Shown here piece after piece: positions 29,129 to 41,500 of a DNA stretch of 64,000 bases (its first letter is position 1; every line of letters starts with the position of its first letter). Made by a program: the position numbers and the translations under genes. The stretch lies in the NCBI GenBank assembly GCA_039802605.1, contig JBDRWW010000006.1:32001-96000 (forward strand). Reading direction: 5' to 3'. The stretch is from a candidate division WOR-3 bacterium. Its GTDB lineage: Bacteria > Hydrothermota > Hydrothermia > LBFQ01. Under the pieces are notes generated by a model. The model did not search any database, had not been told where the DNA came from, and worked only from the letters and a program-made list of their open reading frames with translations.

Positions 29129-30505
29129 ATGTTAATACTTCTATTAACCGATGCGCCATTTGGCCCAAATGTTAAGGTTTCAAACTGGGATATTAGCACG
29201 GGATTGGATCAGCTTGAAGTATCCCTTGCCAAGAGCTCTTCTTGGATAGCGGCTCATTGGATAGATACGGATTGGTCCGGATGGTTTTCCGCCAACGATT
29301 TTGCTATAAGTTCCGATGGTGGCTCTACATGGAAGTTCGTATGGTATATCAGACCCCCTGACACCGTAAACTGTTGGATAGGGGATCCATCCGTCGCTTC
29401 CGATCCCACAAATCCGGACAAGTTCTACGCAGTGGGTATGATATATTGCAACCCTTCAGATCCCAAAGGTGAGGTTTATTTCTGTAAAAACACCGGAAGG
29501 CCTGATACGATTACCAGTTGGAGTTGTTCCATACTCCCCCCTAACGACGGCTGGGCATACTTTAAGGATAAACCTTGGATAATATCACTGGGTGGGGGTG
29601 TTCTCCTTGTAAATTACACTACCGACAAGTACGGAAGTTATGAAATAGATATAGCCCGGAGTACGAATGACGGTTCAACTTGGAATACAATAAGGCTATC
29701 TGGGGTACAATCAACGGTTGCATACTTTTACAGGGATGGTTCAACTGTTTATCTATCCCAAAACAACTTTAACTCTTGGCCTAATATAGCCATAAGGGTT
29801 AGGAAATCAACGGATAACGGAGCTACTTGGACATCCTTAGGGGATGCGGTCAGTTTTAGTCCGGGCTCTTCAACATATTGTCCAAACTTTAACAGACCAG
29901 CAAAGATACACAACCATATAACCGCCCAAGGCAACAATATAGCCGTTGCCTTTATAAAACCCAACGGTTCTTATTGTAATGTAGGTGTGGCATATTCAAC
30001 GAATGGGGGTTCTACTTGGAACAACAAATATGTGGCACAGGCATCAATCGATCAGGTTCTCCCAATGATTGCGAGTTCTTCCCCTTCAAATCTATATGTT
30101 ATGTGGCAGGAAAAGGTTGGGAGTCAATGGGCCACAAAGTGGGCGTCTTCAAGCAACTGGGCAACAACCTTCTCCTCGCCGGGTAGGGTATCCGATCATA
30201 ACTATACATTTAACCAAAATCCGGCCGGCCATGACTACAACGGTTTCCTATACGATGCGGGCAATCTCTTTGCCATATGGGCAAACGACTATTACGGAGA
30301 TGATGCGGGAGCTGTTTATTTTACTAGAACCGCATATACATCCTTAGAAGAGGCTTTGGATAATGGGATTGCCGGGGAATTTGATATATATACCGTTGAT
30401 GGAAGGGTTGTTGCAAGAAATGTCAAAAACTTAAAAGAAATGCACCTGCCAAATGGTGTATATTTCTTAAAGACGGGAACGCGGGTTATAAAGGTTGTAA
30501 GATAA
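29129..30505 (+). CDS. BNR/Asp-box beta-propeller (sialidase-like) protein with T9SS-type C-terminus
   Basis: Asp boxes SSDGGSTW, STNDGSTW, STDNGATW, STNGGSTW; GDPSV; DKPWI; C-terminal IYTVDGR...LPNGVYFL. Confidence 0.82.
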   Translation: MLILLLTDAPFGPNVKVSNWDISTGLDQLEVSLAKSSSWIAAHWIDTDWSGWFSANDFAISSDGGSTWKFVWYIRPPDTVNCWIGDPSVASDPTNPDKFYAVGMIYCNPSDPKGEVYFCKNTGRPDTITSWSCSILPPNDGWAYFKDKPWIISLGGGVLLVNYTTDKYGSYEIDIARSTNDGSTWNTIRLSGVQSTVAYFYRDGSTVYLSQNNFNSWPNIAIRVRKSTDNGATWTSLGDAVSFSPGSSTYCPNFNRPAKIHNHITAQGNNIAVAFIKPNGSYCNVGVAYSTNGGSTWNNKYVAQASIDQVLPMIASSSPSNLYVMWQEKVGSQWATKWASSSNWATTFSSPGRVSDHNYTFNQNPAGHDYNGFLYDAGNLFAIWANDYYGDDAGAVYFTRTAYTSLEEALDNGIAGEFDIYTVDGRVVARNVKNLKEMHLPNGVYFLKTGTRVIKVVR

Positions 30506-30531: not shown

Positions 30532-30571
30532 CCACAAACATAAAAATCAACTATATAATACCCAGTCGTAT

Positions 30572-30645
<74 letters not shown>

Positions 30646-30648
30646 TTT

Positions 30649-30816: not shown

Positions 30817-31049
30817 ATATTGTAAAGCAAATAAAAGAAACCTTTGCAAAGTTTTTCAACATAATAATCAATTTGCCCGATTTTCTTGAAGGGATGAAAG
30901 ATGAGATAAACCGTTTAACATGGCCTGATTGGAACAGCATAGTCGTCGGGACGGTAGGGGTAATAGCCATTTCGCTATTTACCACCGTTTTCGTGTGGAT
31001 TTCGGACTTCATAATTTCCCGTATATTGATGATGATAATAGGGGGTTAG
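30813..31049 (+). CDS. secE: preprotein translocase SecE
   Basis: FLEGMKDEINRLTWP plus a single TM; lies between rpmG and nusG. Confidence 0.88.
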   Translation: MNIVKQIKETFAKFFNIIINLPDFLEGMKDEINRLTWPDWNSIVVGTVGVIAISLFTTVFVWISDFIISRILMMIIGG

Positions 31050-31051
31050 TC

Positions 31052-31963
31052 GTGACTGGGCAAAAAACCTGGCTTATATTTTGGACTAGGGGTGGAGAGG
31101 AATTAAAAACCAAGGAAAAAATAGAAAAACTTGTAAGAGATTTAAAATTGCAGGATAAAGTTGAAAAGGTGTTCGTACCCACCACTAGAACCACAAAATA
31201 CAATAAAAAGAGGGTAAAACCCAAACTTTACGATATAGTGATAAACAATTTCCCAAAAGATTTACCCTTAGAATTTCCTAAACTAATATCGGCGTATCCC
31301 TTAGGGTTTAAGGGTAAGTTGGCTGGGGGCATTGGGTACGACTACGAAGAAATTTCGAAGAACACTTATAGACTTAAGAAGTTGGACAGGAGTAGGTTAT
31401 CGGATATATTTAAAAACCTGTCCGAAAGGGGATTAAAACCCGCTATATTGGGTGTTAAGGAAAAGGAAAGTGAAGAATTGATGAATAAACTATCATCTAT
31501 GGGTTTCTCGGTTGAAAGGGTAAAAAGCGCGTTAAAACCCCAAGCTCATGAGATAGAAACACAGCCGATGGTGGTTGAAAAGCCCATGTACAAAGGTTAT
31601 ATTTTCATCTTTATGGAAGAGGATCAAGCCGTTATAGACAAAATAACCCAAATCATATCAAACACGAGGCCGATTAGGGCAACAGATCCTGCCACGGGTT
31701 TGCCCGTATATATACACGCCAGTGAGGAAGATATAAAGAAGATAGAGGAGCTGATGGCCAGGCAGGAGAGGGAAAAGAGTAGAGAGGCACCGTTTGTGAA
31801 AGGTGATAAGGTGAAAATTACCGAAGGCACTTTGAAGGGTAGAGAGGGTGAAGTGGTTGATGTGGATCTGGATAAGGGGGTTTTGACGGTTAGGGTAAGC
31901 CTTTTTGGAAGGCCACAAGAGGTTCCGGTAAAATTTACGCAGGTTGAAAGATTAGAAGTATAA
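31052..31963 (+). CDS. nusG: transcription factor NusG with large inserted domain
   Basis: TW...[20 protein letters not shown] domain GDKVKITEG...VSLFGR. Start inferred at GTG 31052. Confidence 0.9.
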
Positions 31964-31977
31964 AAAAGGGGGAAAAT

Positions 31978-32418
31978 ATGGCCAAAAAACCTAAGAAGGA
32001 AGTGGTTGCAAGGGTAAAACTGCAACTACCCGCGGGGCAGGCAACTCCTGCGCCACCCGTGGGTCCCACCTTGAGTCCATACGGGATAAATTTGATGCAG
32101 TTTGTTAAGGCATTTAACGACGCCACAAGGGATAGAATGGGTTTAATCATACCCGTTGTCATAACCATTTACAAAGACAAGACATTTGATCTTGAATTTA
32201 AAACTCCCCCCGCATCGGTACTCCTTAAAAAAGCCGCCGGTATAGAAACAGCCGCCCACAATCCCGGTAAGGAAGTGGTGGCAAAAGTTCCAAGGTCAAA
32301 GGTTATAGAAATAGCCAAAATGAAAATGCCCGATCTGAATACTACCGACCTTGAAGCCGCGATTAGGATGATAGAGGGTACGGCCAGAAGCTGTGGAATA
32401 CAAATAGTGGAGGGTTAA
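31978..32418 (+). CDS. rplK: 50S ribosomal protein L11
   Basis: [25 protein letters not shown]. Confidence 0.97.
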
Positions 32419-32419
32419 A

Positions 32420-33145
32420 ATGGCAAAAATTGGGAAAAGGTACAGGAAGCTGCTGGAACTATACGATTTGACAAAGGAATACACTTTAAGGGAGGCGTGC
32501 GAGATGGTCAGGAATTTTCAAAGCGCAAAATTTATAGAAACCGTAGAACTCCACATGAAATTAAACATAGATGTCACAAAACCCGAGCAAAACATAAGGA
32601 TTCCAATAGTTTTGCCGCATGGGACCGGGAAAACCGTTAGGGTTTTGGTTTTAACAAGCGATCCCGATAAAGAAAAAGAGGCAAAGGAAGCCGGTGCAGA
32701 TTATGTAGGTTTCAAGGAGTATATAGAAAAGATTCAGAGCGGTTGGTTGGAGTTTGATGCCGTCGTTGCAACGCCCGAAGCCATGCGTGAGGTCGGGAAA
32801 CTCGGAAGAATATTAGGACCCAGGGGCCTAATGCCCAATCCCAAAACCGGAACCGTAACCACGGATATCGCACAAGTGGTTTCCGAACTCAAGAGGGGAA
32901 GGATTGAGGTCAGAAACGACAAATCCGGTAATGTTCATGTACCCATCGGCAAGACCGATTTTACACCGGAGCAACTTTACGAAAACGCTTTAACGGTATT
33001 TGAGGAAATCGTTAAACATCGTCCCAAAGGTGTTAAAGGGCAATTCATAAAAACCTCATATCTAACCACTACAATGGGGCCTTCTATAAAGTTGAATCTC
33101 GCGGATATTATGGATACACTTAGAAAGAGGGGGGTAATGGCATGA
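32420..33145 (+). CDS. rplA: 50S ribosomal protein L1
   Basis: LPHGTGK, LGPRGLMPNPKTGTV, TTMGP. Confidence 0.97.
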   Translation: MAKIGKRYRKLLELYDLTKEYTLREACEMVRNFQSAKFIETVELHMKLNIDVTKPEQNIRIPIVLPHGTGKTVRVLVLTSDPDKEKEAKEAGADYVGFKEYIEKIQSGWLEFDAVVATPEAMREVGKLGRILGPRGLMPNPKTGTVTTDIAQVVSELKRGRIEVRNDKSGNVHVPIGKTDFTPEQLYENALTVFEEIVKHRPKGVKGQFIKTSYLTTTMGPSIKLNLADIMDTLRKRGVMA

Positions 33146-33666
33146 AAACGAGGAAAGAAAAGGAAAAAATGCTAAAAGAATTAAAAGAAATAGCAGAAAA
33201 GGCAAAGGTTATAACCCTTTTTGACTTCAAGGGTTTAACCGTTCCCGAGATGAATGACCTAAGAAAGCGGATGAAGGAAAAGGGTTATGGTGTTAAGGTT
33301 ATAAAAAACAATCTTTTAAGGATAGCCCTTGAAAACAGGGTACCTGAGATAAAGGATGTACTCGTTGGGAATACGGCAATAATATTTTCCTTCGGTGATG
33401 AGGTTGAACCCATAAAAATATTTGCGGAATTTTCCGAGGAAGTTGGCAAGGGTGAGGTTAAAGGAGGGGTACTTTACGGAAGGTTTATAAGTAAGGATGA
33501 GGTTATAAGGTTATCAAAATTGCCCTCAACATCGGAGTTAAGGGCTAAGGTGGTGGGTGGATTGATGGCCCCAATTTATGGCTTGGTTTGGGGCCTTAAC
33601 GGTCTAATGGCAGGTTTGGTTTACGCTTTAAATGCAATTAAAGAAAAGAAAGAAAAGGAGGTATAA
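33142..33666 (+). CDS. rplJ: 50S ribosomal protein L10
   Basis: GLTV...LR, VIKNNL, LSKLPS; conserved position. Confidence 0.95.
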
Positions 33667-33668
33667 AT

Positions 33669-34055
33669 ATGACGGAGAAGAGGCTTTCCGTTGAAGAGAT
33701 AGTTTCTGCAATAGAAAATTTGACGGTTTTGGAGTTGGCCCAGTTGGTAAAGGCCTTGGAGGAAAAGTTTGGCGTTAGCGCCGCTGCACCGGTTGTTGCC
33801 GCACCGGTTGCAGGGGCTGCCCCCGCGGTCGAACAGGCCGAGGAAAAAACTTCCTTTGATGTGGTGTTGGTTGAAGCCTCCAATAAAATACAAGCCTTAA
33901 AGGTCGTTCGTGAAATAACAGGCTTGGGGCTTAAAGAGGCAAAGGATATAATTGAATCCCTTCCTAAGACCATAAAAGAGGGGGTTTCTAAGGAGGAGGC
34001 GGAAGAAATTAAAAAGAAACTTGAAGCCGCGGGTGCTAAGGTTGAGATTAAATAA
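33669..34055 (+). CDS. rplL: 50S ribosomal protein L7/L12
   Basis: [10 protein letters not shown] hinge, [21 protein letters not shown]. Confidence 0.97.
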
Positions 34056-34073
34056 TTCCGTCGCGGAAAGTGT

Positions 34074-34101
34074 AGGGGAGGGGGATTCCCCCTTCCTTTT
34101 T
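34074..34101 (+). terminator. terminator/attenuator between rplL and rpoB
   Basis: GGGAGGGGG-ATT-CCCCCTTCC followed by a T tract. Confidence 0.7.
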
Positions 34102-34126
34102 AACATTAAATAGGAGGTGTTTTGTT

Positions 34127-37100
34127 ATGAAAGTGGTTAGAGTGGGAAAAGTTGAAGAAAAGTTTTTGCCAAACCTTTTGGAATTGCAAATAGCCTCATA
34201 CGATGATTTTTTGGGTAAAAGGTTTAACATTTTCTGGTCGTATGTGGGTAGGGTTGATCTCTTAGAGGGCTTTTTGCGTTCCCTTTCCGAGAATTATACA
34301 CTCGGTATAAAAGTTTTTAGGGGAACGGTTCAGGAAAGGGCTAAAAATGCCGAAGAGATTTTAAGTTTATTAAGGAAGGAGGTTAATCCAAACGCGAATA
34401 AGGAAGAAATCCCCAGACCAAATTCCTATTACATCATAATTCCGAAGGGGAAGTATTCGCAGGCGGTAATTAAAAGGTTGTTTGAAATTGCAAACGATTA
34501 TAACGCATCTTTGGGAATTATAGGTGTATCCACAAAAACAAGGGATGAAATGCTCGGTTTATCCAACGAAAGGGGATTTGTTGTAAATGTTGAGAATTCT
34601 TTCTTTGACCATTCCGAACCACGATCCACTATGAGTTTGAATCAAATATTTAAGGAAATGTTCCCCCTTCAAAGTACGGATGGAAGGGTTGAGATAGAAT
34701 ATTTGGATTATAGGGTGGGGGATCCCACATCAACACCCGAGGACGCCAAGAAAAGGGACTTAACATATTCCGTGCCGGTTCATATAAGGGTGTTTGAAAG
34801 GTTGTTTGATGAGGAGGGTAGGTTAGAAGAGGAAAGGTTGGATGTTGTGTATTTCACCGATATGCCCTATATGACCCCCAGGGGAACATTTGTAATCAAG
34901 GGGGTTGAGAGGGTTGTAATAAACCAAATACATAGGGCTCCTGGTGTGTATTTTGTTATTGAGGAGGAGGGGTTAAACAAAATCTTTAAAGCTATGATAA
35001 TCCCTTACAGGGGTCCTTGGATGGAGTTAAGGATAGAGGGGGAGAAAGGTATTTACTTTTTCCTAAGGAAGAGAAAGTTCTATCTTACGAGGTTTTTACG
35101 GTTCTTGGGGTTTGAAGGTTTTAGGGATATTGTAAATGTTGCCCTGGGACACCTTATACAGGAAAAATCGCTAAGTGAGGCCGAAGGGTATTACTTAGCG
35201 GAAGATATAATGGATGAAGATGGGGAAGTTATCATACCTATGATAAACGACAGGGGAGAACCCAAGGAAATAGACGAAAAGATCATTAAAAAATTGAAGA
35301 AATCAAAGAGAACAAAGGTTAAGGTTTTGGATCCTAGGGACCCGGCCGTTAACATAATCTTAAAAACCCTGAAGGATGATAAGATGAGGAGTAGGGATGA
35401 AGCCATAAGGTTCATATATAGGGCTATAAGGTTTGCTTCCGCAACAATTGAAAACGCCGAAGAGTTCCTGAGGCTTTACTTCTTCTCACCCGACCGCACA
35501 TACTTGGGTAAAGTTGGAAGGTATAAGATAAATACGAGATTGTATGAGAATGTAGTAAAGTATTTGAAGGATTTGGAAGGGTTTTCGGTTCCAAAACCGG
35601 ATGTTGAAAGTTTAACCGAGTTGGATTTCATAGTCGCCCTTAGGATACTCTTGGATCTATATAGGGGTGAGGGTGAAGAGGACGACATAGATGACCTCTC
35701 ACACCGTAGGATAAAGAGGGTTGGTGAACAGTTGTTTGAGTGGTGTAGAAACGAATTTATAAGAACCGCCAAGGGGATCAGGGAAAAACTAATAACCGAA
35801 AAGGAGCCTTTGAGAAATATTGTACACCCGAAAATAGTTTCCCGTTCGGTTATAAATTTCTTTACACAAAACAGCCTTTCCCAGTTGCTTGACCAGACGA
35901 ATCCTTTATCCGAATTAACCAATAAGAGAAGGATTTCCGCGATGGGTAAAGGTGGATTGACGAAGGAGACGGCAACTTTGGAGGTTAGGGATGTTCATCC
36001 ATCCCATTATGGTAGGATATGTCCTATTGAAACACCCGAAGGACAAAACATAGGTTTGATATTATCCCCAACGGTATACGCACGGGTAAACGAACTGGGT
36101 TTTATAGAAACCCCACTTGTAAAGGTTGAAAAGGGTAAAATCACGGATAAAGTTAGATACTTTGCCCCGCATGAGGATTACAACTTAAAAATTGCACCCG
36201 CCGATATAGAAATAGATCCAAAAACCAAGAGTATAAAAAAGGCAACAAATATAATTGTTAGGCACAAGAGGAGCTATATGTTTGCCAATAGGGAAGAAAT
36301 TGACTACATAGATTTATCGCCGAGACAGATAATATCACCTTCAACATCTCTAATACCCTTCTTGGAATACGACGATGCCAACAGGGCGCTAATGGGTTCA
36401 AACATGCAAAGGCAGGCGGTACCCCTCTTGGATCCCGAATCCCCCAATGTGGGAACTGGTATGGAGGAAAAGATAGCAGCGGATACCGGTTCTGTTATAT
36501 TCGCCGAGGAGGACGGCGAAGTTGTATATGTGGATTATTCAAAGATAATAATCCGTCCCGAAGGGAGTATATTTAACCTTAAAACTTATAACTTGCGTGT
36601 GTTTGAGAGATCTGGGCAGAATACCATAATACACTATGTGCCTAAGGTTAAGAAAGGTCAAAAGGTTAAGAAAGGTGATATATTGGCGGAAAACTTGGCA
36701 TCCGTAGGGGGAGAAATTTCCCTAGGGAGAAATTTAACGGTTGCTTTTGTTCCTTGGTACGGTTATAACTTTGAGGATGCCATTGTTATTTCCGACAGGC
36801 TTGTTAAAGAGGATAAGCTTACATCGTTGCATATATTGGAATTCACCTGCGAGGTTATGGATACGAAGTTGGGTCCAGAAGTCGTTACAAGGGAACCGTA
36901 CAAAGAGCATGAGGGAAACCTCCGCCATTTGGATCAATACGGAATAGCCAGAATAGGTGTTAAGGTGGGTCCAGGTGATATATTGGTTGGTAAGAATACT
37001 CCCCGTGAGGATAGAAAGTTCAGCGAGTTGTCTCCCGAGGAAAAGCTGTTAATATCTATATTCGGTGAGAAATCCAAGCCCTGGAAGAATACATCTTTAA

Positions 37101-38548
37101 GGGTACCTCCGGCGGTACACGGGATAGTGATAGGTGTTGAAGTGTTAACCAGGTATATTTCCGATGATCCCTTAGCTTACGGTATGCCCGGCCCTGGAAA
37201 CGAATTTATCCCAGGAGAACTGTATGTGGATCCCGAAGTCAGACCCGATTCGCCGCCGGATCCTTCAAGACCCATAGGTAGAAGGCAGAAAAAACTCTTA
37301 AACGAGATAAACCTAAAAATACAAAACCTCCGCGATACTTTAAGGGAAACATTGCAAAACATGTTAGCCGGAAAGACGGTTAAAAAACCCCTGTATGTTA
37401 GAAAGGGCGATAAACGACAAAAAGTCCTTGAAAAGGGTGAGGTTATAACCACGGAAACGATTAAAGAGATAGACCCATTGAAGCTCGTAATAGAGGATGG
37501 AACATTTGGTGATAAAAACTTGGAAAACGAGGTTGAGAGGATCCTAAGGGATGGAATGGAAAGTTATGAAAGCCTTATTCAGGAGTACGAAGAGGGTTTG
37601 GAGGCCATAAGGAGGGGGGATGAGCTCCCGGCGGGTATCAGACAGGTTATAAAGGTTTATGTGGCGCAAAAGAGGAAAATTAGGGTTGGGGATAAACTTG
37701 CAGGTAGGCATGGTAATAAGGGTGTGGTTTCCATAATAGCACCCGAAGCCGATATGCCCTTTATGGAAGACGGTACTCCTGTGGATGTCGTGCTAAACCC
37801 CTTAGGCGTACCTTCCCGTATGAACATAGGTCAGATATTGGAAACACTTTTGGGGTATGCCGCCGTTAAAAATACCGAAAAACTAAGGGATATGCTGAAA
37901 AGGAAAGAATCACCCGCAAAAATAAGGGAATTCCTGTTAGAACTTTATAAACCCCACAAAGATGAGAGCCTTAAGGAATGGTTAAAGGATGCCTCTTATG
38001 ACGATATACTTTACTTCGCCCAAGAACTCGCCGAGAAGGGCATAAAGTATGCTTGTCCCGCTTTCCAAAGCTTAAAGGTTGAAGAGGTTAAGGAACAATT
38101 GAAGCTCGCAGGGTTGCCGGAAGACGGTAAAATGAGGCTTAGGGATGGTAGGACGGGTGAATACTTTGATTATCCCGTAACGGTTGGAAATATGTATATT
38201 ATGAAGTTAATCCATATGGTTGAGGACAAGATACACGCCCGTTCCGTTGGTCCTTATTCATTGATCACCCAGCAACCCGTAGGTGGTAGGTCTCATATGG
38301 GAGGTCAGAGGTTTGGGGAAATGGAGGTATGGGCCTTAGAGGCGCATGGGGCGGCATACTCCCTGTGGGAGATGCTAACCATAAAATCCGACGATGTTAG
38401 GGGAAGGATAAAGACATACAAAGCCTTACGAGAGGGAACCGAGCCACCCTTACCATCAACACCCGCTACTTTTCAGGTTTTAACCAAGTTTTTAAGGGCT
38501 TTGGGTATTAACTTAGAAATTAAAAGGGGAGACGGAAAAAGGGGGTAA
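34127..38548 (+). CDS. rpoB: RNA polymerase beta subunit
   Basis: GTFVIKGVERV, RDVHPSHYGRICPIETPEG, GDKLAGRHGNKG, GQRFGEMEVWALE. Confidence 0.98.
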   Translation: MKVVRVGKVEEKFLPNLLELQIASYDDFLGKRFNIFWSYVGRVDLLEGFLRSLSENYTLGIKVFRGTVQERAKNAEEILSLLRKEVNPNANKEEIPRPNSYYIIIPKGKYSQAVIKRLFEIANDYNASLGIIGVSTKTRDEMLGLSNERGFVVNVENSFFDHSEPRSTMSLNQIFKEMFPLQSTDGRVEIEYLDYRVGDPTSTPEDAKKRDLTYSVPVHIRVFERLFDEEGRLEEERLDVVYFTDMPYMTPRGTFVIKGVERVVINQIHRAPGVYFVIEEEGLNKIFKAMIIPYRGPWMELRIEGEKGIYFFLRKRKFYLTRFLRFLGFEGFRDIVNVALGHLIQEKSLSEAEGYYLAEDIMDEDGEVIIPMINDRGEPKEIDEKIIKKLKKSKRTKVKVLDPRDPAVNIILKTLKDDKMRSRDEAIRFIYRAIRFASATIENAEEFLRLYFFSPDRTYLGKVGRYKINTRLYENVVKYLKDLEGFSVPKPDVESLTELDFIVALRILLDLYRGEGEEDDIDDLSHRRIKRVGEQLFEWCRNEFIRTAKGIREKLITEKEPLRNIVHPKIVSRSVINFFTQNSLSQLLDQTNPLSELTNKRRISAMGKGGLTKETATLEVRDVHPSHYGRICPIETPEGQNIGLILSPTVYARVNELGFIETPLVKVEKGKITDKVRYFAPHEDYNLKIAPADIEIDPKTKSIKKATNIIVRHKRSYMFANREEIDYIDLSPRQIISPSTSLIPFLEYDDANRALMGSNMQRQAVPLLDPESPNVGTGMEEKIAADTGSVIFAEEDGEVVYVDYSKIIIRPEGSIFNLKTYNLRVFERSGQNTIIHYVPKVKKGQKVKKGDILAENLASVGGEISLGRNLTVAFVPWYGYNFEDAIVISDRLVKEDKLTSLHILEFTCEVMDTKLGPEVVTREPYKEHEGNLRHLDQYGIARIGVKVGPGDILVGKNTPREDRKFSELSPEEKLLISIFGEKSKPWKNTSLRVPPAVHGIVIGVEVLTRYISDDPLAYGMPGPGNEFIPGELYVDPEVRPDSPPDPSRPIGRRQKKLLNEINLKIQNLRDTLRETLQNMLAGKTVKKPLYVRKGDKRQKVLEKGEVITTETIKEIDPLKLVIEDGTFGDKNLENEVERILRDGMESYESLIQEYEEGLEAIRRGDELPAGIRQVIKVYVAQKRKIRVGDKLAGRHGNKGVVSIIAPEADMPFMEDGTPVDVVLNPLGVPSRMNIGQILETLLGYAAVKNTEKLRDMLKRKESPAKIREFLLELYKPHKDESLKEWLKDASYDDILYFAQELAEKGIKYACPAFQSLKVEEVKEQLKLAGLPEDGKMRLRDGRTGEYFDYPVTVGNMYIMKLIHMVEDKIHARSVGPYSLITQQPVGGRSHMGGQRFGEMEVWALEAHGAAYSLWEMLTIKSDDVRGRIKTYKALREGTEPPLPSTPATFQVLTKFLRALGINLEIKRGDGKRG

Positions 38549-38551
38549 AAA

Positions 38552-41500
38552 ATGAATTGGAGGACGATTAAAAGGGTTATAGCATCTTTGGCCTCGCCGG
38601 AGGAGATGAAACTCTGGTCTGAGGCCGAAAGGAGGGGTAGGGAGAGGGGAGAACACGGTTTGGGTGAGGTTAAAAGCCCCGAAACCATTAACTACAAAAC
38701 CTTAAAACCCGAACCTGGTGGTCTATATTGTCAAAGGATTTTCGGGCCTGTTAAGGATTACACCTGTGCTTGTGGGAAGTTTTCGGATAAGAGGTATGAG
38801 GGTATAATTTGCGATGTTTGTGGTGTTGAGGTTACGAGATCCGATGTTAGAAGGGAAAGGATGGGATATATATCCCTCAACACACCGGTTGTACACCCCT
38901 GGTTTTACAAGATGCCCCCTTATATCATTCCCACACTCTTAGGGATACCAAAAACGAAGTTTGAGCCCGTAATCAACTATGAGGCTTATGTTATCCTTGA
39001 TGTGAAAACCGACCTGGAATTTGTTGAGATAGATTCCCGAGACGGAAAGAAAAAGATATACCTCCGCAAGGGTGAAGTTGTATCCATAGAGGAGAGGAAA
39101 AAGATAATTGCCGCTTTGGGCCCTGAGGAGGTTGAATTCGAATGGGGTGCTGAGGCCATGGCGGTTAAATTCGGATGGGGTGCTGAGGCCATAAAGAAGC
39201 TACTGGAAGATTTAAACGAGGAGGTAGAGGATCCACAAACGAGGGAGAGGATTACGAGATTGGAAGCCTTATATAAAGAGACCAAGTTAAAACTTCAAAC
39301 CACTACAAATCCGTCGGAAAGGACAAAGCTCTTAAATAGATTGAAGATTATAGAGGCCTTTATCCTATCCGGACAAAACCCCGCTTGGATGGTGTTGGAG
39401 GTTATACCCGTCTTACCCCCTGATCTAAGGCCGATTTTGACCTTAGGTGGTGGTAAGTTTGCAAACACGGATTTAACGGATCTTTATAGGGATGTAATAA
39501 GGAGGAATAACAGGTTAAAGCAGATATACGAAAAGGGTGCGTTTGAACTGATGGTTATAAACGAAAAGAGGCAGATAAAGCATGCCGTTGAAGCCCTGAT
39601 AGACAACTCCCGTTTGAGAAGGCCTTCTATGAACAGGAGCGGTCAGAGGAGGAAATCTCTTACGGATTATTTGAGGGGTAAGAAGGGGTTGTTGAGGAGG
39701 AATCTACTCGGCAAGAGGGTTGATTATTCCGGTAGGTCGGTAATAGTTGTAGGTCCCCATTTAAAACTCCACCAGGTTGGAATACCGAAGGATATGGCCC
39801 TTGAACTGTTTAGACCCATGATTGAGAAGAAACTTGAAGAATCCGGCATTGCATATACCACATCCGAAAAGCGGTTGTTCATAAAACGGCAAAAACACGA
39901 GACCATAGAAATACTCCTTGATATTACAAGGCGCCATCCTGTTTTGTTAAACAGGGCTCCCACATTGCACAGGGTTTCAATTCAGGCCTTTGAACCCGTT
40001 ATAAACGAAACATACGCCATTCAAATACACCCTTTGGTTTGTGCAGCATACAATGCCGACTTTGATGGGGATCAGATGGGCGTTTTTGTACCCATAAGTC
40101 CCGAGGCCATAGCAGAAGCATACGCTTTAATGTTGGCCCCCCACAATATTCTATCGCCGGCGCATGGGAATCCCTTGGCTACGGCCTCTCAGGATATGGT
40201 GATAGGTATAAACTATATAACAAAGATGAGGTCTGGGGAGGTTAAGGGATCATATTCTGGGTACTATGAAGCCATACATGCCTTTGAGAATGGGCTTGTA
40301 AAGATAAACGATCCTGTGGAGGTATTGTTGCCCGTTGAAGGAAACCCCTTTGATCCAAATAACTCCAAGGTAAAGCCCGTACAAACGACGGTTGGTAGGA
40401 TAATCTTTGCATCAATAATACCCTCTGAGATGTGGGGGGATGGATTTACATTTCTTTCGGTGAATAAGGAATTTAAGAAGAAGGATATATCAAATCTTGT
40501 AAAGGAGATCCACAGGAAGCTTGGGACATGGAAGACGGCGGAATTTCTTGACAATATGAAGGAACTCGGTTTCAAGTGGGCTACATGGTCGGGCTTAACC
40601 TTCGGCATAGATGACATAATAATCCCCAAAGAAAAGCAAAAGATAATAGAAGATGCCTTTAAAGAGATAGACAAAGTTGAAAGGCAGTTTACGCATGGTA
40701 GGATAACGGGTGCCGAAAGGAGGCAGAGGATATTTGATATATGGACTAAGGTGACGGAAGAGGTGACAAAAAAGATGATAGAGGCGATGGAAAAGGATAA
40801 AGACGGTTTTAACCCGATATACCTTATGGTCTTCTCCGGGGCTAGGGGTAATATAGATCAGACGAGGCAGTTGGGGGCGATGAGGGGGCTTATGACGAAA
40901 CCCTCAAAGAAGGGTCAAGCCGGGGAAATAGTTGATACGCCGGTTCTTTCGGCTTTGAAGGAGGGGCTTTCATCCATAGAGTTCTTCATATCTTCCCACG
41001 GGGCGAGGAAGGGGTTGTCGGATGTGGCCATGAAAACCGCCGATGCCGGTTATCTAACCAGGAGGCTTGTGGATGCCGCCCAAGAGGTTGTTGTTACTAT
41101 GGATGATTGTGGGGCTATAAAGGGTAGGGCTGTTAGGGCGTTAAAGGAGGGGGAGACGGTCATAAGGAGGTTGAGCGAAAGGATAGTTGGGAGGTATGCC
41201 CTTGACGATATATACGATCCGGAAAGTGGGGATGTTATAGTTGAGGCTGGGGAAGAGATAACGGAAGAGAAGGCCAAGATAATAGAGGAGAAGGGGATAG
41301 AAGAGGTTGAGATTAGGTCTGTGCTGTATTGTGAGGCGCCTTATGGTGTATGCCGGAAGTGTTATGGGAGGAATTTGGCTACGGGCAAACCCGTTGATAT
41401 AGGTGAGGCCGTTGGGATAATAGCGGCGCAATCCATTGGAGAGCCCGGAACACAATTAACCCTTAGGACCAAACATACCGGGGGTGCTGCCGAAAGGATA

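Follow-up and report, generated by a model that had tools for sequence, protein, structure and literature searches.

In Thermotoga, the inserted domain II (DII) of NusG binds the β and β' subunits of RNA polymerase (RNAP) as well as double-stranded DNA (0.04 µM), and has been proposed to stabilise the NusG–elongation complex at high temperature; the insert of Aquifex NusG is unrelated to it (PMC5224480). The NGN domain of NusG bridges the clamp and the β side of the RNAP cleft (PMC5100998), contacting the protrusion, the gate loop or both, a choice that correlates with pro- or anti-pausing activity (bioRxiv 10.1101/2022.10.21.513233). In Thermotogae-group bacteria, HABAS domains have been described as inserts in NusG as well as in the two RNAP subunits, with gene neighbourhood suggested to have favoured their acquisition (PMC11515920, Alvarez-Carreno et al. 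2024). Here, we describe a 64,000-nucleotide stretch from a candidate division WOR-3 bacterium (contig JBDRWW010000006.1, positions 32,001 to 96,000; hereafter the window, to which all coordinates refer), in which NusG and RpoB, the β subunit of RNAP, each carry an inserted domain of look-alike predicted fold. The two inserts are probably paralogues, and we consider it an even bet that, as paralogous α/β sandwiches, they add contacts between NusG and the polymerase or DNA as an adaptation to heat.

Both genes lie in a canonical cluster, comprising tRNA-Trp, rpmG, secE, nusG, rplK, rplA, rplJ, rplL, rpoB and rpoC, in which nusG and rpoB are 2.2 kb apart. In the 303-residue product of nusG (31052..31963, forward strand), Pfam finds KOW (E 8.1e-08) and NusG NGN (E 1.4e-05), the latter split over two stretches. 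The β-hairpin of NGN bears an insert of ~120 residues at its tip (31208..31567, forward strand, ~residues 53-172), modelled here as residues 55-170 (31214-31561). The 1473-residue product of rpoB (34127..38548, forward strand) contains an insert of ~134 residues in domain β-uD1 (34214..34615, forward strand, ~residues 30-163), modelled as residues 31-160 (34217-34606). An initial annotation of the window had proposed that the two inserts follow one pattern, into which the C-terminal domain (CTD) of bL12, encoded between them, also fits. The six strings that it quoted all occur in the translations where it placed them, the range opening at NusG Y60 (31229) and the RpoB string GFVV ending at 34585.

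The NusG and RpoB stretches are true insertions relative to their kin. NusG finds a full-length match in only 12 of 41 related genomes, all from one family of two genera; in the other 29, just residues ~4-52 and ~173-301 match, a few codons apart, and in alignment these relatives close the NGN hairpin in ~8 residues. Similarly, the first 258 residues of RpoB are matched in full by 12 of the 41 and from ~residue 163 onwards by 29, with a short QEDVPP-type loop aligned in place of the insert. The view that the inserts are genuine and restricted to one shared clade is thereby borne out, 12 relatives having both and 29 having neither. Within the RpoB insert, residues 93-98 (34403-34420) form a motif, E(E/D)IP(R/K)P, whose I, P and P are invariant, and which resembles the QEDVPP loop of the insert-less relatives and is aligned with it by MAFFT. 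This likeness may be due to chance, or the original loop may have been retained inside, flanked by two insertions.

The NusG flanks align by phmmer on both sides of the extra domains that Aquifex and Thermotoga NusG possess (query 168-301 to 122-248 of 1m1g, and query 177-300 to 229-351 of 2xhc), and the insertion site is the same hairpin that bears domain II in these two proteins. RpoB residues 160-257 align to E. coli β 38-138, which places the insert between E. coli residues 37 and 38, and E. coli β 1-152 constitutes the domain β-uD1 (PMC11515920).

Both inserts were modelled with AlphaFold2, the NusG insert with a predicted local distance difference test (pLDDT) score of 81.8 and a predicted template-modelling (pTM) score of 0.70, and the RpoB insert with scores of 94.6 and 0.88. 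The NusG model consists of strand 5-12, helix 20-24, strands 30-33, 43-48 and 51-55, helix 59-71, strand 75-82, helix 83-95 and strand 99-104, and the RpoB model of strand 3-7, helix 13-23, strand 29-33, helix 38-55, strands 61-65 and 70-75, helix 82-94, strand 98-104, helix 106-119 and strand 123-127. Apart from helix 38-55, which is found only in RpoB, the order of elements is identical, with nine in common (strand-helix-strand-(helix)-strand-strand-helix-strand-helix-strand). In both models an outer shell, formed by the first strand and helix together with the last helix-strand-helix-strand, can be superposed on the split β-α-β fold of the bL12 CTD and ClpS, and a nested three-strand segment of 40-60 residues, with an additional helix in RpoB, sits in the middle of this shell. 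The extra segment that the initial annotation had noticed after the motif LG.K (LGFK, LGIK) corresponds to this nested segment, and LG.K itself, following the first helix, is a strand in both models. Residues 22-104 of the RpoB insert may also be read as a second ferredoxin-like unit.

As modelled, the inserts are therefore best described by the class of ferredoxin-like or split β-α-β sandwiches, having two β-α-β units and an antiparallel sheet backed by helices, with the bL12 CTD and ClpS as close examples of the class. With a threshold of E <= 0.001, Foldseek gave no match to the NusG insert; the RpoB insert matched 5cw9, a designed ferredoxin-in-ferredoxin protein (E 3.3e-05, template-modelling score 0.48). 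In a separate fold search over 48,161 chains, 19 of the best 50 chains, counted by eye, were common to both inserts, including all five ClpS representatives and the bL12 chain 8yeq_A; the scores for bL12 and ClpS tie with those for generic ferredoxin-like proteins, ferredoxin-like designs and carboxypeptidase prodomains. RNAP β chains and the NusG proteins of Thermotoga and Aquifex were not among the best 50, which does not exclude them. A look-alike search of the ESM Atlas with both inserts gave no usable match. A UBA-like identity was also considered for the NusG insert and rejected, the Pfam match to UBA_7 (E 0.0031) scoring 17.8 bits where the cut-off is 27, and the stretch concerned being a helix and strand of the modelled sandwich.

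Across 272 genomes of the phylum, a profile scan found the NusG insert in 12, all of the same family (family f1 of WOR-3/Caldipriscota, comprising Candidatus Caldipriscus and one sister genus), and in none of the 260 others, and the RpoB insert gave a strong match in the same 12. Neither occurs without the other in these genomes. The co-occurrence is thus perfect, yet it is that of a single clade, and amounts to one evolutionary event. The hidden Markov model (HMM) of the RpoB insert gave nine further marginal matches (E 0.0016-0.009) in frames other than RpoB, five of the nine in one genus, which were treated as chance rather than as relatives; the four open reading frames (ORFs) inspected read, by eye and without a family scan, as unrelated enzymes, namely a radical-SAM methyltransferase, a HAD hydrolase, a GMP synthase fragment and a glycosyltransferase. 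RpoC shows no comparable family-specific insert over its first 450 residues, which run colinear with the RpoC of insert-less relatives, and RpoC open frames measure 1407-1436 residues, compared with 1387-1403 in the sister family. Among 1.84 billion representative sequences, the NusG-insert HMM made five matches, one NusG and four others, of which the three inspected are repeat proteins and the fourth is P0011. Word-based searches, which for the RpoB insert used a word index, recovered six NusGs, four RpoBs and one truncated RpoB fragment.

Both inserts are under purifying selection, somewhat looser than that on their hosts. In four pairs, the ratio of non-synonymous to synonymous substitution rates was 0.06-0.26 in the NusG insert, compared with 0.04-0.09 in the rest of NusG, and 0.05-0.14 in the RpoB insert, compared with ~0-0.03 in the rest of RpoB 1-300.

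In sequence, the links among the two inserts and the bL12 CTD are marginal. BLASTP between the inserts yields one high-scoring segment pair of 24 residues (E 0.019), and between the inserts and bL12 gives E values of 1.1 and 2.8. With profiles of 12 rows each, hhalign scored the NusG insert against the RpoB insert at P 0.004 (probability 8%), the NusG insert against the bL12 CTD at P 0.0015 (probability 17%), and the RpoB insert against the bL12 CTD at P 0.064 with one L12 alignment and 0.0011 with another. As a decoy test, 14 profiles of equal depth were taken from these loci and compared by hhalign in 91 pairs; the three pairs among the NusG insert, the RpoB insert and the bL12 CTD ranked 1-3 (23.2, 22.5, 22.2). 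The NusG–RpoB and NusG–bL12 matches fall in structurally equivalent helix-strand-helix-strand elements, and the RpoB–bL12 match is out of register, pairing bL12 helices with a strand.

A common origin of the NusG and RpoB inserts is suggested by the nine secondary-structure elements that they have in common, all in the same order, by the 19 structural neighbours common to their best 50, by their profile match, which ranks second of 91 pairs and lies in equivalent elements, and by the proximity of their genes within one cluster. These observations argue against an alternative, in which the inserts were acquired independently, converged on a common ferredoxin-like sandwich, were both fixed in one family, and have separate roles, the NusG insert binding nucleic acid as other NusG domain IIs do and the RpoB insert serving as a brace or as a docking surface for some other partner. 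Such convergence we regard as somewhat unlikely, while acknowledging what speaks for it: there is no significant sequence link between the inserts, every fold match ties with generic ferredoxin-like proteins, and the co-occurrence is that of one clade and so counts as one event. The charges of the two also differ, the NusG insert being basic in all 12 orthologues (net +3 to +8) and the RpoB insert near neutral (-2 to +4), and so do their invariant residues, those of NusG including aromatic and basic positions within the nested segment.

The difference in invariant residues is one of several points that weigh against paralogous inserts adding contacts in the elongation complex. The next-best decoy pairs score close to the three of interest, at 21.2 (uL10 against the NusG insert) and 19.8. 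When matches were ranked among all domain hits of each HMM in the organism's own genome (7,662 six-frame ORFs), the RpoB-insert HMM placed the NusG insert 252nd of 3769, and the NusG-insert HMM missed the RpoB insert, its sole match in RpoB lying elsewhere in the protein and ranking 4014 of 4139; nor did the latter retrieve any RpoB among the 1.84 billion representatives. Paralogy is argued from element order, common neighbours and marginal profile scores. The remainder of NusG is likewise basic (net +5). Both the mutual proximity of the inserts in the complex and their function are inferences, as is the adaptation to heat. Prediction of a complex between the NusG and RpoB inserts, from a 12-row alignment each, scored 0.00 against a mark of 0.32, and counts neither way.

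The paralogous inserts may be pictured as follows. In the ancestor of one hyperthermophilic WOR-3/Caldipriscota family, NusG and β would each have gained a compact α/β-sandwich domain. That of NusG sits on the tip of the NGN hairpin, and that of RpoB in β-uD1, the N-terminal domain which corresponds to the protrusion (Pfam PF04563), and which NGN would reach across the cleft. The inserts would then enlarge the interface of NusG with the polymerase, with upstream DNA, or with both, the basic NusG insert acting as a clamp on nucleic acid or RNAP, as proposed for domain II of Thermotoga NusG, with the result that NusG would stay attached to the elongation complex at ~80 °C. Candidatus Caldipriscus was described from streamers of springs at about this temperature (~80 °C; PMC4791363). 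We hold with moderate confidence that an enlarged NusG–β and/or NusG–DNA contact would serve as a heat adaptation, because of the precedent of Thermotoga DII, the known contacts of NGN with the protrusion and gate loop, and the basic character of the NusG insert. Whether NusG acts for or against pausing is reported to depend on its contacting the protrusion versus the gate loop, so a larger contact could also alter pausing in these organisms.

The initial annotation had looked instead to bL12. rplL (33669-34055, forward strand) lies between nusG and rpoB, and its CTD (33849..34052, forward strand; residues 63-128), matched by Pfam PF00542 at E 5e-28 and 97.7 bits, is encoded 160 bp ahead of the point of insertion in rpoB; rplL is the sole match of the PF00542 HMM across the genome. 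Descent of the inserts from bL12 is possible because of this neighbouring gene, weak reciprocal HMM ranks, and the failure to find a ClpS in the genome (90% complete). In own-genome searches the RpoB-insert HMM ranked bL12 seventh, the L12-CTD HMM ranked the NusG insert seventh, and the NusG-insert HMM ranked bL12 nineteenth. A bL12 CTD duplicated into both nusG and rpoB, which then gained a nested β-meander, and whose copies now clasp one another across the cleft, seems improbable to us; if true, either NusG would be a near-permanent RNAP subunit in these hyperthermophiles, or a bL12-like surface would couple the polymerase to the translation machinery.

The first two helices of the bL12 CTD form the conserved surface that binds translational GTPases. 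The initial proposal, that the inserts derive from the bL12 CTD with its function kept, and either recruit EF-G, EF-Tu, IF2 or the ribosome, or dimerise as bL12-like modules, is very improbable. A Pfam scan assigned neither PF00542 nor ClpS to either insert at E <= 1, so neither belongs to the Ribosomal_L12 family by profile, and searches of PDB sequences with both insert profiles listed no L12 or ClpS at E <= 10. The hhalign match of the RpoB insert to bL12, pairing helices with a strand, departs from the register proposed, and uL10 fits the same NusG segment nearly as well as bL12 does (21.2 vs 22.2). In DNA, the likeness of the rplL CTD to the inserts amounts to chance words of 7-12 bases. 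No profile alignment spans the first-helix region in the register proposed, and in both models the strand at LG.K and the 40-60-residue nested segment take the place of the aligned helix-helix junction, which would interrupt the surface formed by the two CTD helices and speaks against docking of translational GTPases. Of the related bL12-like domain first proposed, the fold resemblance and the paired acquisition thus stand, with bL12 and ClpS both among the nearest solved folds and one element order in the two inserts; the sequence pattern is weak, and a graft specifically of bL12 is unsupported, given the absence of profile membership, the shifted register and the tie in fold score with ferredoxin-like domains, leaving descent from bL12 unproven.

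Other features of the cluster may be mentioned. The start of nusG is most likely the GTG at 31052, which stands behind AGGGGG. The stop-to-stop frame is open further upstream (30929-31052), overlapping the end of secE, and database lengths differ, with 322 residues in the entries for the organism's own protein and one close relative and 303 in other family members, so that gene callers disagree on the start; conservation sets in at about residue 5 of the shorter version. NusG residues ~182-250 (31595-31800) form a long charged helical linker between NGN and KOW, present phylum-wide with or without the insert. In rpoC, residues 195-216 (39134-39199) comprise an in-frame 33-bp tandem duplication with an 18-base exact core (EFEWGAEAMAV / KFGWGAEAIKK), which looks genome-specific because the stretch matching the first 450 query residues is 33 bases shorter in the nearest relative (G002). 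Directly upstream of the tRNA-Trp gene (30571-30646), positions 29129-30505 encode a 458-residue BNR/Asp-box, sortilin-like β-propeller protein, for which every Pfam match is below cut-off, and whose C-terminal stretch resembles, by eye, a secretion-sorting domain.

NusG and RNAP are already known to carry lineage-specific inserts, and a single domain type has even been seen in both. The initial annotation knew of no description of such a paired insertion; no paper describing this NusG/RpoB pair was found either, the Lane and Darst 2010 catalogue and the supplements of PMC11515920 lying outside the search, but the report of HABAS domains in RNAP subunits and NusG (PMC11515920) is a precedent for pairing as such. 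The text of that paper mentions WOR-3 nowhere (0 occurrences, supplementary Table S2 apart), and neither NusG nor 'RNA polymerase' occurs in the Caldipriscus/WOR-3 papers examined. Different here are the fold, the β insertion site, and the paired origin, within a single family-level clade, on proteins in mutual contact. A look-alike pair, one on NusG and one on the β domain that NGN would reach, offers a natural test of whether lineage-specific inserts evolve as interacting pairs, as well as a concrete case for domain exchange among neighbouring genes of the nusG-rpl-rpoBC region. The NusG insert would be a third type of hyperthermophile NusG "domain II", and that of RpoB would add a β insertion site beyond the five in the 2024 survey.

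Compared with NusG domain II of Thermotoga maritima (2XHC, 2LQ8) and Aquifex aeolicus (1M1G), the NusG insert shares the NGN hairpin, a hyperthermophilic host and a basic character. It differs in that no phmmer alignment extends over the insert, with neither domain II among its best 50 structural neighbours (which does not exclude a relationship), and in that a look-alike domain is found in RpoB as well. A parallel to the latter is offered by the polyphyletic insertional domains BEAN and HABAS, found in RNAP β and β', NusG and archaeal uL10, where one domain type likewise occurs in several proteins of the nusG-rpl-rpoBC neighbourhood; here, by contrast, the predicted fold is an α/β sandwich, the lineage is another, and the RpoB insert lies in uD1, at E. 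coli 37/38, whereas the five β sites listed for BEAN are in uD2, uD3, uD5 and uD4 (PMC11515920). Among the closest known folds are uS10-like ferredoxin folds and nested ferredoxin-like architectures. Superposition on the designed ferredoxin-in-ferredoxin 5CW9 is loose (root-mean-square deviation 5.7 over 120 residues) and, the protein being designed, implies no descent. Unlike the bL12 CTD (PF00542; 8YEQ, 1DD3) and ClpS (2W9R, 3O2O, 7D34), the fold of both inserts is split by a nested segment of 40-60 residues, and unlike bL12, they have an extra strand where its second helix begins, and neither a dimerisation domain nor a hinge.

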